This document shows positions 29,080 through 36,764 of a stretch of 64,000 bases of DNA, in pieces (the stretch's first letter is position 1; every line of letters starts with the position of its first letter). The notes below the pieces were generated by a model that saw nothing but the letters and a program-made list of their open reading frames with translations, ran no database searches and was not told where the DNA came from. The translations under genes and the position numbers were made by a program. The stretch covers positions 1 through 64,000 of the IMG/VR virus record IMGVR_UViG_3300029516_000004. One strand, given 5' to 3'. Source of the DNA: a virus. Lineage: Duplodnaviria; Heunggongvirae; Uroviricota; Caudoviricetes.

Positions 29080-29481
29080 ATGTCTGTTGAAGAAAATATC
29101 AAAACGGTTAAAAAGTTTTATCGTCTGATTGAAGAAAATAAATATGATGAGGTGAAAAACCTCTGCCATCCGGATTTTAAATTCTATTCTCAGGTGGATA
29201 CACCGCTGAACAGTGAGCAGTTTATCGTACAGGAAAAAGGCCATATGGATGCTTTTCCGGGATTTACAATGCGTATCCACGAAATCTTTGCCAGAGACGA
29301 TAAAGTCGCCTGCTATCTTATCTTTGAAGGCGTGCAGACCCGTGAATTCCTTGGGCATCCTGCCAGCGGCAGGAAAGTGCGCTTTTCTCTGATGTTTATG
29401 ATCACTCTGAAAGACGGGAAATATATAGAAAAACGGGCTCATTATAATACAGCGGATATCCTCCGGCAGTTGTCAGCCTGA
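29080..29481 (+). CDS. SnoaL-like / ester cyclase family protein
   Basis: 133 aa, NTF2-like pattern (VKKFYRLIEEN...DFKFYSQ...); translationally coupled to upstream regulator. Confidence 0.6.
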   Translation: MSVEENIKTVKKFYRLIEENKYDEVKNLCHPDFKFYSQVDTPLNSEQFIVQEKGHMDAFPGFTMRIHEIFARDDKVACYLIFEGVQTREFLGHPASGRKVRFSLMFMITLKDGKYIEKRAHYNTADILRQLSA

Positions 29482-29734
29482 GTGGCAACACATTGCCCAG
29501 TCTGTATTATTACAGGCAGGGCTGCGTATCTGACAGGAGCAATGAGCTTAGCCTGGAAAGGTAATCCATTAACGCCAGGGCTACTTTTTATTCCGATTCA
29601 GGCTCTCTATAAAGGGCTTGAATGCGGCATATCTGTGAAGGACTGTACCCTGTCGCATCTACCGTTTCATGGATACTTAGTTTCTTGACCTGCCGGTAGT
29701 ACAGGACTTTCTGATGCCGTTCCTGATCGGCCTG

Positions 29735-30228
29735 TTATCCCCGGTATTTACCCAGCGTATGAGCCCGTTCAATTCCCTGTTGTTGCCGTTGGCGACGGCT
29801 CAGCCAGTCCTTATGCGACATCGCGGCCATCAGGTCGATAAGCATGTTATTGATGGCGGTTATCACGGCGCGGGTGATTGGGTCAGCCTGCGAAGGGTCT
29901 TTATCTGACAGCGCCTGCCATGAGGTGGATACATCCAGGCGACAATCCGCAGTTCGTGTTGTTCTATCTGCTTTTTCAGCGTAATCCAGTCACTGTTACT
30001 CAGACGGGTCAGGCGGTCAATTTGCTCGACCAGTAAAATATCATTGCGGTGGCTGTCCATCAGTAAGCGTCCCAGTTCCGGGCGGTCGAGTTTTGTACCG
30101 CTTATGTTCTCCCGGTAGTAACTGGCTATTTTATGTCCCCGCTCCTGAACAAACTGCCCCAGCATCTCTTTTGCCCGATCGGCAAACTGATCTTCCGTTG
30201 ATGCCCTTAAATAAGCTCTGATGAACAT
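29735..30228 (-). pseudogene. Serine recombinase (resolvase family), frameshifted and lacking C-terminal HTH
   Basis: N-terminus MFIRAYLRASTEDQ...LLVEQIDRLTRL in one frame; continuation LDVSTSWQALS...GKYRG* in the +1 frame (one base missing in gtcgcctgg run near 29935) and stops before the DNA-binding domain. Confidence 0.6.
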
Positions 30229-30510
30229 TTTTCCACCACGTTATCGCTTTTAGGTTATTGCATTTAATCTATCGCAATGGCAGAGTCCTGTCCGGGAACC
30301 TCGCGGGCTTCTCTGGAAAACATGCAGGCATGGTACATCCGAGATGAAACCTACTCTGCTGCCCTGGCGGAACTGGTTAAGTAGGTAATGGCCACGTCTT
30401 CGTAGTTGACTAACGCCACGGCTCAATTATAACAATCAATTAGAGCAATGTTATATTGTTTATCTTCAGTCACATTTTTTCACTTTAGTATCTATGTGCT
30501 ATACTCCTTT

Positions 30511-30578
30511 CTGATTGATTGGATGCGGAACACAAACCCGCTCTTTAGTGCAGCCTGGCTCCTTGCCAGGCTTTTTTT
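30511..30578 (+). ncRNA. Candidate small antisense RNA carrying CUGAUUGAUUGG seed
   Basis: -10-like TATACT at 30500-30505, seed 30516-30527, small hairpin gcgg-N9-ccgc, then intrinsic terminator agcctggc-tcctt-gccaggct plus T7; no ORF on either strand. Confidence 0.3.
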
Positions 30579-30888
30579 ATTTCATCATGGAAGCTGTTAA
30601 CGCTTTGGACCTTGCTGAACTGATTGAAAGGACATTGTTAACCTTATCCAAGAGTTCGCCAAAGTCAGACACTACTTTAGCAAAACCGCGCCGTGCTTCT
30701 TCCTCGGTGGCATTCATCACGAAATGTTCAGCACTACGCATACTTCTGACAGGGAACGCAACGGATATTGAGTCAATATCAGGCATTCTATCGCTCAGCT
30801 TTACAGTGACAATGACGGCTGGCGACTGAATATTAGTGCTCACAGACAGCACTACATATTTTCCGTCGATGTTGAAATCCTTTCTCAT
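30577..30888 (-). CDS. Hypothetical protein downstream of cre (Cra position)
   Basis: 103 aa ORF co-directional with cre. Confidence 0.4.
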   Translation of the reverse strand: MRKDFNIDGKYVVLSVSTNIQSPAVIVTVKLSDRMPDIDSISVAFPVRSMRSAEHFVMNATEEEARRGFAKVVSDFGELLDKVNNVLSISSARSKALTASMMK

Positions 30889-30938
30889 ATGTCACCATAA
30901 ATATCAAAGAATTAGAGCAATCATTTACGCGTTAATGG

Positions 30939-31970
30939 CTAATCGCCATCTTCCAGCAGGCGCACCATTGCCCCTGTTTCACTATCCAGGTTACGGATAT
31001 AGTTCATGACAATATTTACGTTGGTCCAGCCACCAGCTTGCATGATCTCCGGTATTGAAACTCCGGCACGGGCCATATCTCGCGCGGCTCCGACACGGGC
31101 ACTGTGTCCAGACCAGGCCAGGTACCTCTGGCCAGAGTCATCCTTAGCCCCGTAAATCAATCGGTGAGTTGCTTCAAAAATCCCTTCCAGGGCGCGAGTT
31201 GATAGCTGGCTGGTGGCAGATGGCGCGGCAACACCATTTTTTCTGACACGGCAAAACAAGAAGTTATTCGGATCATCAGCCACACCAGAGACAGAAATCC
31301 ATCGCTCAACCAGTTTAGTTACCCCCAGACTAAGTGCCTTCTCTACACCAGCGGTGCTAACCAGCGTTTTCGTTCTGCCAATATGGATTAACATTCTCCC
31401 ACCGTCAGTACGTGAGATATCTTTAACTCTGATCCTAGAAATTTCGGCTATACGTAACAGGGTGTTATAAGCAATCCCCAGAAATGCCAGATTACGTATA
31501 TCCTGGCAGCGATCGCTATTTTCCATGAGTGAACGAACCTGGTCGAAATCAGTGCGTTCGAACGCCAGCGCCTGTTTTGCACGCTCACCGGCATCAACGT
31601 TTTCTTTTCGGATCCGTCGCATGACCAGTGAAACAGCATTGCTGTCACTTGGTCGTGGCAGCCCGGACCGACGATGAAGCATATTTAGCTGGCCCAAATG
31701 TTGCTGGATAGTTTTCACTGCCAGACCGCGCGCCTGAAGATATAGAAGATAATCGCGAACATCTTCAGGTTCTGCGGGAAACCACTTCCGGTTATTCAAC
31801 TTGCACCATGCCGCCCACGACCGGCAAACGGACAGAAGCATTTTCCAGGTATGCTCAGAAAACGCCTGGCGATCCCTGAACATGTCCATCAGGTTCTTGC
31901 GAACCTCATCACTCGTTGCATCGACCGGTAATGCAGGCAAATTTTGGTGTACGGTCAGTAAATTAGACAT
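30939..31970 (-). CDS. cre: Cre tyrosine site-specific recombinase
   Basis: 343 aa; sequence read as Cre throughout (MSNLLTVHQNLPALPVDATSDEVRKNLMDMFRDRQAFSEHTWKMLLSVCRSWAAWCKLNNRKWFPAEP...), loxP about 420 bp upstream. Confidence 0.98.
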   Translation of the reverse strand: MSNLLTVHQNLPALPVDATSDEVRKNLMDMFRDRQAFSEHTWKMLLSVCRSWAAWCKLNNRKWFPAEPEDVRDYLLYLQARGLAVKTIQQHLGQLNMLHRRSGLPRPSDSNAVSLVMRRIRKENVDAGERAKQALAFERTDFDQVRSLMENSDRCQDIRNLAFLGIAYNTLLRIAEISRIRVKDISRTDGGRMLIHIGRTKTLVSTAGVEKALSLGVTKLVERWISVSGVADDPNNFLFCRVRKNGVAAPSATSQLSTRALEGIFEATHRLIYGAKDDSGQRYLAWSGHSARVGAARDMARAGVSIPEIMQAGGWTNVNIVMNYIRNLDSETGAMVRLLEDGD

Positions 31971-32296
31971 TTAACACTCAGATAATGGTTTTAAGTAAAG
32001 TGTACAGGATCGGCTCTGCCTTTACCTGTTTATGGTTCTCGTCATAGAAACGCCAGCGACCGCGCGTGCGTTCTATTTTCTCTTCACCGCGCGATAATGA
32101 CAGTTGGCAACTATCACGCTCAAACCCTTTTGCCCGCCAGTAACCACGGTTTTTCTCAAGCTCAAGATGAGTGGACACTTTAGCAGCTGAATATCCCATT
32201 TTTCACCTCTGATTGATTGGTGGTGCTAAGTGCGCTACGCGAAATCTGGAGCACTAACACTGCCAACATTTCGCAGATTTTACGTAGCGCAACCTT

Positions 32297-32369
32297 GATC
32301 AAATGATCAAGTGATCACTATTTGACCTGATAAGGTATTGAACTGTATGGATTTACAGGTAAATTGATC
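32297..32369. promoter_or_regulatory. GATC cluster in the cre promoter region
   Basis: Four GATC sites within 73 bp between loxP and cre. Confidence 0.5.
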
Positions 32370-32388
32370 ATATTCAATAACCCTTAAG

Positions 32389-32422
32389 ATAACTTCGTAT
32401 AATGTATGCTATACGAAGTTAT
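32389..32422. other. loxP recombination site
   Basis: Exact ATAACTTCGTATA-ATGTATGC-TATACGAAGTTAT. Confidence 0.98.
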
Positions 32423-32465
32423 TAGGTCTGAAGAGGGGTTTACTTCCAGCTGCGCATAAAAATCA

Positions 32466-32482
32466 AGAATTATTAGAGCAAT
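32466..32482 (-). promoter_or_regulatory. C1 operator-like site
   Basis: agaattattagagcaat, 15/17 to operator consensus. Confidence 0.6.
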
Positions 32483-32537
32483 AAATTTTGAGAGAAAAAT
32501 CCCACTCCACCAGCCAAAAACTGGATTGCTTTTCATA

Positions 32538-32554
32538 GTTGTTTGACAATTGCT
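32538..32554 (+). promoter_or_regulatory. C1 operator-like site
   Basis: attgctctaataaatta, 16/17 to ATTGCTCTAATAAATTT. Confidence 0.7.
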
Positions 32555-32803
32555 CTAATAAATTATAGTTTTGCCGCCGTTTCGTAATACGACTTTGGAT
32601 TCACTATTTAATGTGTCTTCAGCGTTGTAGAGCGGCTCAGAAGGAAATGAGCAAACAGGGAAACCTTATACAACGGCATTACAGCTATGCATTGCTCATC
32701 TTACACACAGCGCAATGTTGTTAGATTACCCCAGCATGGATCATGGGTGAAACAGTAGGTCAGAGCTTCAGGCTCTGTGTTGTCAATACAGTGAGGCATA
32801 ATT

Positions 32804-33013
32804 ATGGCTTTCATTCCACCAACCATCGACGACGTTAGACATTGCTCTAACGCTTTATCTGTAGACCCTGCCGAAACCGACGCTGCCCGCGCCATTGCTG
32901 AACACTACTCAAAGATATCCAATCAGGAGTACCGCATCACCCAAGACGACCTGGATGATCTCACTGACACAATCGAATATCTCATGGCCACTAACCAGCC
33001 AGACTCACAATAA
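32804..33013 (+). CDS. coi: Coi (C1 inactivator)
   Basis: 69 aa ORF immediately upstream of c1, between loxP and c1. Confidence 0.75.
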   Translation: MAFIPPTIDDVRHCSNALSVDPAETDAARAIAEHYSKISNQEYRITQDDLDDLTDTIEYLMATNQPDSQ

Positions 33014-33123
33014 ATGCACTAATAAATCTATTATTTTCGTTGGATCCTTCTATAATGGTGGCCAACAACTCCCAGTGTAATCCGCTGTGAGTTGTTGGCC
33101 ATGTCAATTCTGGAGGAGGATCA

Positions 33124-33975
33124 ATGATAAATTATGTCTACGGCGAACAACTGTACCAGGAGTTCGTCAGCTTCAGGGATCTCTTTCTAAAAAAAGCTGT
33201 TGCACGCGCCCAACACGTTGATGCCGCCAGCGACGGTCGTCCTGTACGCCCGGTTGTCGTTCTGCCGTTCAAAGAAACGGACAGCATTCAGGCTGAAATT
33301 GATAAATGGACTTTAATGGCGCGGGAACTGGAACAGTACCCAGATCTCAATATCCCAAAGACTATTTTATATCCTGTGCCTAACATCCTTCGCGGTGTGC
33401 GTAAGGTTACGACTTATCAGACAGAAGCTGTGAACAGCGTCAATATGACCGCTGGCCGCATTATTCATCTGATTGATAAGGACATTCGCATCCAAAAAAG
33501 CGCGGGGGTCAATGAGCACAGTGCGAAATACATAGAGAACCTGGAAGCAACAAAAGAGCTAATGAAGCAGTACCCGGAGGATGAAAAATTCCGTATGCGC
33601 GTACACGGCTTTAGCGAAACAATGCTGCGCGTCCATTACATTTCCAGTAGCCCTAACTACAATGATGGTAAATCAGTTAGTTACCATGTGCCGCTATGTG
33701 GCGTGTTTATCTGCGATGAAACTCTCCGAGATGGAATCATCATCAACGGTGAATTTGAGAAAGCAAAATTTAGCCTTTATGACTCTATAGAACCGATCAT
33801 CTGCGACCGCTGGCCGCAGGCAAAAATATATCGCCTGGCAGATATTGAAAATGTAAAAAAACAAATTGCCATCACTCGCGAAGAGAAAAAGGTCAAATCA
33901 GCCGCATCAGTTACGCGCAGCCGTAAAACTAAGAAGGGGCAGCCAGTAAACAGCAACCCCGAAAGCGCGCAATAG
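33124..33975 (+). CDS. c1: C1 repressor of lysis
   Basis: 283 aa, GGAGGAGG RBS; position between loxP/coi and pacB; multiple cognate operators in window. Confidence 0.9.
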   Translation: MINYVYGEQLYQEFVSFRDLFLKKAVARAQHVDAASDGRPVRPVVVLPFKETDSIQAEIDKWTLMARELEQYPDLNIPKTILYPVPNILRGVRKVTTYQTEAVNSVNMTAGRIIHLIDKDIRIQKSAGVNEHSAKYIENLEATKELMKQYPEDEKFRMRVHGFSETMLRVHYISSSPNYNDGKSVSYHVPLCGVFICDETLRDGIIINGEFEKAKFSLYDSIEPIICDRWPQAKIYRLADIENVKKQIAITREEKKVKSAASVTRSRKTKKGQPVNSNPESAQ

Positions 33976-36742: not shown

Positions 36743-36764
36743 CCCGGAACGGGCAAGCAATCAA

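Follow-up and report, generated by a model that had tools for sequence, protein, structure and literature searches.

A candidate trans-acting small RNA between c8 and ref in P1-like phage-plasmids

Phage P1 is one of the founding models of phage and plasmid biology, and Cre-lox originates from it. Is the short segment between its genes c8 and ref transcribed into a regulatory RNA, and if so, which genes would such an RNA address? The question arises from a stretch of 64,000 nucleotides of a tailed-phage record in IMG/VR (IMGVR_UViG_3300029516_000004, positions 1 to 64,000; here called the window), in which a first-pass annotation singled out positions 30436-30585 as the possible source of a trans-acting antisense small RNA (sRNA). 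We analyzed this locus for transcription signals, repeated sequence, predicted pairing, and conservation.

Setting of the locus

The window belongs to a P1-like phage-plasmid and is reverse-complemented relative to the P1 map. Its closest relative is the IncY plasmid pJIE250_3, with 99.5% identity in the c8/ref region. From the open reading frame list and the P1 annotation, cra (31978-32199) and cre (30939-31970) lie on the minus strand, as does c8 (30577-30888), which is convergent with the candidate sRNA. Positions 30436-30585 correspond to the c8/ref intergenic region and adjoin immC and lox, which agrees with the earlier placement of the element outside immI. Within this intergenic region the P1 annotation lists only the C1 operator Oref (Op2a), P2ref, and P1ref, all on the minus strand; it gives no feature between the c8 stop and P2ref, and RefSeq annotates no noncoding RNA at the locus. 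Oref occupies 30433-30449 on the minus strand, inside P2ref, as placed by the P1 annotation, an operator scan, and a promoter scan, and is not part of the candidate RNA. P2ref is divergent from the candidate sRNA promoter and stands back-to-back with it. Since Oref lies about 30 bp upstream of the sRNA -35 element, direct occlusion of the sRNA promoter by C1 is not expected.

Several further observations concern the surroundings. P1 homology of the window ends at 30385, so that ref itself has been replaced by other cargo. The ref slot beside P1ref (window positions ~29480-30385) is a site of cargo exchange, and its common boundary lies at ~30380-30385; in P1 the slot is occupied by ref, the window and pJIE250_3 have genes for HTH, ester cyclase, and MBL-fold proteins upstream, and two plasmids (L005 and L006, 1131-2461) carry an icd-like gene and a KilAC antirepressor operon directed toward c8. 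A remnant of an icd/ant operon upstream in the window was ruled out, as homology to those two plasmids starts only at ~30379. In its last six bases Oref deviates from the C1 consensus; the minus strand there carries ATTGATTG (window positions 30432-30439 in plus-strand numbering), which is a partial repeat of the GATTGATTG word. A second C1-operator-like sequence, ATTGCTCTAATTCTTTG, lies at 30905-30921 on the minus strand between the cre stop and the c8 start, with its first 11 nt perfect; the P1 counterpart reads ATTGCTATAATTATTTG and is not annotated as an operator in P1. Through this site c8 may be under C1 control.

A candidate promoter-to-terminator unit

In silico, the c8/ref region supports a candidate plus-strand unit running from promoter to terminator, with a predicted RNA of about 66 nt that has no coding potential. 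The putative promoter is of the sigma-70 type with an extended -10 element and reads TTTTCA-17-TGcTATACT in full. The -35-like hexamer TTTTCA lies at 30477-30482 and the extended -10 element TGcTATACT at 30497-30505 (TATACT at 30500-30505); TTTTCA-17-TATACT scores 9/12, with the TG present. An Lpa-dependent late promoter was considered and rejected, as nothing upstream of TATACT corresponds to the LPmat -22 box, AAGTGACTT. Promoter-like matches as such are not enriched in the region (5 found and 4.4 expected from shuffles), which favors a reading in which the locus has no dedicated function: the promoter match would be fortuitous, the hairpin downstream would be an insulating terminator or a 3' stabilizer of c8 mRNA, and the repeated word would be a chance low-complexity repeat (GATT GATT). 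We regard this as rather improbable, for reasons that come from the conservation profile and the target ranking.

Transcription would likely start at G30513, the first purine, 8 nt past the -10 box. The predicted sRNA spans 30513-30579 on the plus strand (~66 to 67 nt), its end lying inside the U-tract, and corresponds to about 1830-1895 on the minus strand of P1 (NC_005856). The repeated motif begins 5 nt past the end of TATACT and not 10 nt as first described, and a start at G30513 would leave a seed of 10 to 12 nt, GAUUGAUUGG(AU), in place of the full 12-mer proposed at first; the expectation of a single-stranded 5' end is borne out by the predictions. In the consensus fold, nt 1 to 12 are unpaired, and this putative 5' seed, GAUUGAUUGGAU, occupies 30513-30524. 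In the fold of the P1 RNA, nt 1 to 8 have unpaired probabilities of 0.66 to 0.99, and nt 9 to 11 are able to enter a weak helix.

The small hairpin and the strong terminator described after the motif are both present in the sequence. The hairpin, GCGG-N9-CCGC at 30525-30541, has a 4-bp stem and a 9-nt loop; among its 11 variants, pairing is retained as G-U in two and lost in two, which is weak support. A U-rich linker leads from it to the intrinsic terminator at 30552-30579 (stem-loop at 30552-30572), which has an 8-bp stem with 6 GC pairs, a 5-nt loop, and U7. When the whole 64-kb window was scanned for top-grade terminators, defined as a perfect 8-bp stem with at least 6 GC pairs and a T-rich tail, this was one of only four, and none were found in 20 shuffles. 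It is predicted to work on the plus strand only, as the minus-strand hairpin follows an A-run and has no U-run. In P1 no plus-strand gene lies upstream of it, ref and mat pointing the opposite way, and the simplest reason for a plus-strand terminator in such a place would be a short dedicated plus-strand transcript.

The terminator also overlaps the c8 stop codon. For lack of a U-run after the minus-strand hairpin, transcripts of c8 should continue past it and cross the whole complement of the sRNA, and the sRNA, being convergent with c8, would be fully complementary to any such read-through RNA. This arrangement speaks for a second alternative, in which the sRNA is made but acts only in cis, by pairing with c8 read-through RNA or by transcriptional collision, so as to uncouple c8 from ref or to tune the stability of c8 mRNA, and in which the matches to cra, the peptide gene, and pmgS described below are fortuitous. 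We consider it unlikely, and the evidence on targets, seed, and co-occurrence bears on it further.

The statement that the locus lacks an open reading frame on either strand is correct in effect. Mechanical plus-strand frames exist at 30448-30600 and 30515-30829, but indels in relatives break the frame, and in P1 an ATG-initiated plus-strand frame ends inside the motif. A minus-strand mini-ORF after the Shine-Dalgarno (SD)-like AAGGAG was ruled out, as there is no start codon.

The repeated motif and its chance expectation

The 12-mer CTGATTGATTGG occurs exactly at 30511-30522 and 32209-32220 on the plus strand, and GTGATTGATTGG at 46599-46610 differs from it by one mismatch. The recurrence of the motif at three loci is thus real, with two of the coordinates first given, 30516 and 46597, off by 2 to 5 nt (30511 and 46599). 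The accompanying argument that a 12-mer is expected far less than once in 64 kb is valid only for a word fixed in advance. It fails here because thousands of 12-mers are repeated in the P1 genome: in its 88 kb there are 2,926 oriented 12-mers with two occurrences and 368 10-mers with four or more. For the fixed 12-mer with at most one mismatch there are 5 matches against 0.64 expected, a count reached in 0 of 100 shuffles; for the 11-mer, likewise with at most one mismatch, there are 6 against 1.85 expected, reached in 3 of 100. Two further one-mismatch copies, at 36757 and 57448 (opposite strand), have unrelated contexts and were taken as chance. P1 and most relatives carry TTGATTGATTGG in place of the window's 12-mer, and the conserved core of the motif is GATTGATTGG. 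As the window's C30511 lies upstream of the predicted start, the 12-mer identity that drew attention to the locus is partly accidental. The repeat count by itself is weak evidence. The abundance of repeated 10- to 12-mers in P1, the modest enrichment of the 11-mer, and the nature of the word as a slippable tandem GATT repeat, of which one CAAT unit has been lost from the peptide leader in three genomes, all favor the reading without function.

What stands out is the sequence context, and tests that are independent of how the word was picked carry more weight. Among the 368 repeated P1 10-mers, CCAATCAATC ranks first for copies in translation initiation regions (-35 to +30 of the start codon, sense strand): three of its five copies lie in start regions, which make up 3.4% of the sequence, although one of these belongs to a 28-amino-acid (28-aa) open reading frame that joined the gene list only after it had been seen, and without it CCAATCAATC ties at two copies. 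The three copies lie at -21 of cra, about 25 nt upstream of the ATG of the 28-aa frame, and at +20 of pmgS. A purely cis-acting RNA does not predict that the complement of its seed should be the repeated P1 10-mer most associated with start regions.

A third alternative places the function on the other strand. Here the minus-strand sequence, as a c8 3' untranslated region or c8-ref read-through, would carry a shared mRNA leader module consisting of a hairpin, CCAAUCAAUCA, and an SD, serving, for example, as an unstructured enhancer of translation or as a binding site for a protein; it would be used at cra and the peptide gene and persist as a relic or decoy after c8, and no plus-strand RNA would matter. 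All three exact copies are indeed on the minus strand, and each combines a stem-loop, CCAATCAATCA, and an SD-like purine run (AAGGAG, AGGTG, AGGAG). The minus strand folds equally well (z = -3.1), and the hairpin variant CCCAC keeps its pairing on the minus strand only; against this, two other hairpin variants retain G-U pairing on the plus strand only, and the terminator is predicted to function there alone. Neither the window nor P1 has a start codon or an open reading frame after the SD-like run at 30506-30511, and that run, with variants CTCTTT, CTCGTT, and CTCCCTT, is less conserved than the -10 box and the seed that flank it. These last two findings weaken the minus-strand module, and we judge it improbable.

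Predicted targets

Pairing was predicted between the first 24 nt of the candidate RNA and all 93 P1 start regions. The 28-aa frame (pep28) ranked first of the 93, with a duplex energy of -22.5 kcal/mol, and cra ranked second, with -22.0 kcal/mol. A second-best target this good was obtained with 1 of 300 shuffled seeds (p ~0.003), and a best target this good with 2.3%. The pairing first proposed with the two leaders is thus recovered as the top two of all start regions, a result that the cis-only reading does not predict and that counts against the reading without function. When the full RNA was cofolded with each leader, the seed was used in all three cases (cra, peptide, and pmgS).

The first predicted target, CCAAUCAAUCAG(A) at 32209-32221 on the minus strand, lies directly 5' of the cra SD (cra ATG at 32199). 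The site had been assigned to the leader of cre; it adjoins the SD of cra, which opens the cra-cre operon. No variant of the site occurs among the ~85 relatives from which the leader was recovered, and its cofold ddG is -7.5 kcal/mol; with a start at G30513, contiguous pairing to cra would amount to only 10 bp. The second predicted target, (GU)AUCCAAUCAAUC at 46599-46612 on the minus strand, is located 5' of the SD of the 28-aa frame, as the first-pass annotation had it. A seed duplex of 14 nt there has a predicted energy of -20.9 and a cofold ddG of -15.0 kcal/mol, and its variants are wobble-compatible transitions or the loss of a CAAT unit, which are uninformative on covariation. Both of these sites fall inside annotated transcripts, P3cre and PpmgT. 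A possible third target, CCAAUCAAUC at 48496-48505 on the minus strand, covers pmgS codons 7 to 10, ranks fifth of 93 by duplex energy, and has a cofold ddG of -14.5 kcal/mol. This pmgS site represents a fourth copy of CCAATCAATC on the sense strand; in three genomes it reads AAGCAATC, a nonsynonymous N-to-K change. The distances from the candidate sRNA are 1.7 kb to cra and 16 kb to the peptide gene.

Plaque formation requires none of the predicted targets, nor the cra-darB region as a whole (PMC10695390). Any phenotype may therefore be subtle, and the biology to be expected is that of lysogeny or plasmid maintenance and not of plaques.

The 28-aa frame and a second terminator

The 28-aa frame, MNTAFKIIMAAIYFWLFSITFGGIVAHG, is strongly hydrophobic and occupies 46499-46585 on the minus strand (reading from 46585 to 46499; ~84393-84479 in P1, AF234172), with a good SD. 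It lies downstream of the operator Op88 and the PpmgT promoters and, in P1, where it is unannotated, just upstream of pmgT. It is identical in 85 of 101 P1-like genomes, and the peptide has no family match in Pfam, PHROGs, or NCBIfam.

A second top-grade terminator is found on the plus strand at 46613-46644 (stem region 46613-46635), with a 10-bp stem and a TTTTATTTT tail. It is specific to the plus strand, lies directly 3' of the motif copy GTGATTGATTGGATA on that strand, and is antisense to the peptide leader; the neighborhood contains no plus-strand genes. The two plus-strand segments, at c8 and at the peptide leader, share a common layout: CTCCT, 2 to 3 nt, TGATTGATTGGAT, one or more hairpins, and TTTTTATTT(T)CA. 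Upstream of the second terminator there is only a weak promoter, AGAACA-19-CATAAT. A cis-antisense RNA could end at this terminator, in the manner of a type I toxin-antitoxin locus; the terminator could alternatively be a 5'-terminal stabilizing hairpin of the peptide-pmgT mRNA, beside the A-rich -10 region of P1pmgT.

Conservation in the P1 family

The candidate sRNA element is present in P1, P7, RCS47, SJ46, plasmids of Escherichia albertii, and about 700 plasmid records; the ~700 sequenced P1-like plasmids that carry it come from E. coli, Salmonella, Shigella, and Klebsiella hosts, and some carry resistance genes. The search for the motif in P1, P7, and their relatives, which had been named as a check, thus found the element in both and in ~110 relatives. 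Conservation was assessed in a sample of 112 P1-like loci, ~100 of them from IMG/VR, which yielded 46 distinct in-register sequences. Among these, TATACT has no variants, and the TG is kept in nearly all. Counted as variants per column, the -10 box has 0, the seed 0.33, the remaining body 0.68, the discriminator 1.4, the spacer 1.9, the -35 hexamer 3.2 (including TTTTCT and TTTTTA), and the DNA further upstream ~7, so that the minima coincide with the -10 box and the first 12 nt, the seed.

Measured as differing genomes per column, the segment from the -10 box through the body has 1.12, compared with 14.7, 2.1, and 6.5 for the three codon positions of c8. The ~55 nt that separate the -10 box from the terminator are thus better conserved than the most constrained c8 codon position, which indicates that this noncoding stretch is under stronger constraint than the neighboring protein. 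A bare terminator would leave these ~55 nt unexplained, as it would the conservation minimum exactly on the -10 box and seed, and this profile weakens the reading without function. The conservation signal does not distinguish the two strands.

Nucleotides 1 to 9 of the seed are invariant in all (~110) loci, and substitutions occur at nt 10 only. A purely cis-acting antisense RNA would have no need for its first 9 nt to be the most invariant. On the other side, the seed variants G10A and G10U have no matching changes in the cra, pep28, and pmgS sites of the IMG/VR contigs, and this lack of covariation with the proposed trans targets is in keeping with action in cis only. In three IMG/VR contigs (L023, L025, and L075) the G10A change occurs together with loss of the extended -10 TG (TGTGC to TGTAC), which may mean that the sRNA gene is decaying in one lineage or that the two changes are simply linked.

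RNAalifold found 0 compensatory pairs in the structure of the candidate sRNA. Distant relatives were sought through the C8 protein, and all 135 matches were P1-family proteins with at least 72% identity, so there is no depth for covariation.

Linkage of the unit with c8

Wherever the candidate sRNA occurs in complete E. coli genomes, c8 adjoins it. In plasmid pCFSAN058545_02, ref and Oref are joined directly to the first c8 codons; the junction runs from the T-run of the sRNA -35 element to c8 codon 4-5, and what is absent is exactly the stretch from that T-run through the c8 body (L112 3560-3625 compared with L001 2590-3000). The constant co-occurrence and the joint loss suggest that the convergent c8-sRNA pair behaves as one cassette. 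That the two are always together, and absent together in pCFSAN058545_02, favors the cis-only reading, and the cassette behavior keeps a cis-antisense role on c8 read-through RNA in play.

Proposed mechanism and implications

We hypothesize, with a probability of roughly 0.45, that the locus encodes a constitutively or independently promoted sRNA of ~66 nt that uses its 5' seed to occlude the ribosome-binding regions of both cra and the peptide gene, with pmgS as a possible further target, and that also acts in cis on c8 read-through RNA. In this scheme the sRNA would be transcribed in the direction opposite to cre, c8, and ref from the extended -10 sigma-70 promoter, which Oref does not cover, beginning at G30513 and ending at the strong intrinsic terminator that overlaps the c8 stop. 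Its seed would pair with CCAAUCAAUC just 5' of the SD of cra and of the 28-aa peptide gene, the latter heading an Op88-controlled operon that continues with pmgT in P1, and it may also pair near the beginning of pmgS. Such pairing would keep the 30S subunit from binding and reduce translation. Repression of cra might reach cre through polarity or coupling, which would make cre a target only indirectly. As the sRNA is antisense to the c8 read-through transcript, it might act in cis as well. The U-rich linker and U-tail suggest that Hfq is probably needed.

A bolder version of this scheme can be put forward, which we hold to be a long shot. The P1 family would possess a second riboregulatory circuit besides C4, in which the c8-linked sRNA coordinately restrains the Cre recombinase operon (via cra) and a C1-controlled 28-aa membrane peptide acting as a type I toxin; a partner cis-antisense RNA ending at 46613-46635 would share the anti-RBS sequence, and the c8-sRNA pair would be a portable convergent cassette gained and lost as a unit.

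The annotation of Cre control in P1 comprises three promoters, Dam methylation sites, and a LexA binding site. If the sRNA reading is true, a posttranscriptional layer would be added to this control via the cra-cre operon, an unannotated peptide gene would be revealed at the head of the Op88 (pmgT) operon, and a simple testable circuit would be available in the ~700 sequenced P1-like plasmids. The practical impact would be modest, as the genes involved are all dispensable for lytic growth.

Comparison with known small RNAs

The first-pass annotation had likened the candidate to the C4-type antisense RNA. C4 is cut from its operon's leader, controls the icd/ant mRNA located downstream in the same transcript family, and recognizes its target through two loop sequences. 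The likeness is a functional one: both C4 and the candidate are small RNAs of the same phage family for which a block of translation via short complementarity around the RBS is proposed. The candidate differs in having its own promoter and terminator, predicted targets 1.7 and 16 kb away, and a linear 5' seed in place of loops. The Rfam C4 model gave no match at E <= 10 in 29500-33500 and none at the gathering score in the whole window; with the different locus, the own promoter and terminator, and the linear seed, membership in the C4 family was ruled out. Nor did any other Rfam family match in searches at permissive and gathering thresholds, the best being SorX with 19 bits and GadY with 17 bits, far below threshold and terminator-like only. 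A 2025 review of phage small RNAs (PMC12197685) lists no P1 riboregulator other than C4. A full-text literature search on P1 sRNAs and on the sequence itself, with the P1 genome paper outside its scope, found no mention of such an RNA, and an RNA-seq preprint on P1vir in an hfq mutant reports genes only.

Type I antitoxin RNA systems, such as Sib/Ibs and IstR/TisB, offer a second comparison. RalA, of the RalA/RalR system of the rac prophage, is reported to be a trans-encoded type I antitoxin RNA with 16 nt of complementarity (PMC4041452). The candidate resembles these RNAs in that one predicted target is a gene for a 28-aa, strongly hydrophobic peptide, the RBS of which would be covered by 12 to 14 bp. 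It is unlike them in lying 16 kb from the peptide gene and not adjacent to it, and in also matching cra and pmgS.

The third comparison is with the Hfq-dependent 5'-seed sRNAs of enterobacteria. RNAs of the RybB and OmrA/B type are 60 to 90 nt long, with a conserved single-stranded 5' end, a U-rich stretch, and a GC-rich terminator with a long U-tail, and they address several targets at or near the SD. In silico the candidate has the same build, its free 5' seed being followed by a small hairpin, a U-rich linker, and a U-tailed terminator. It differs in being borne on a phage-plasmid, in having the element's own genes as its predicted targets, and in showing no similarity to any Rfam sRNA. Judged by computation only, the candidate is thus probably a new trans-acting 5'-seed sRNA of the P1 family.
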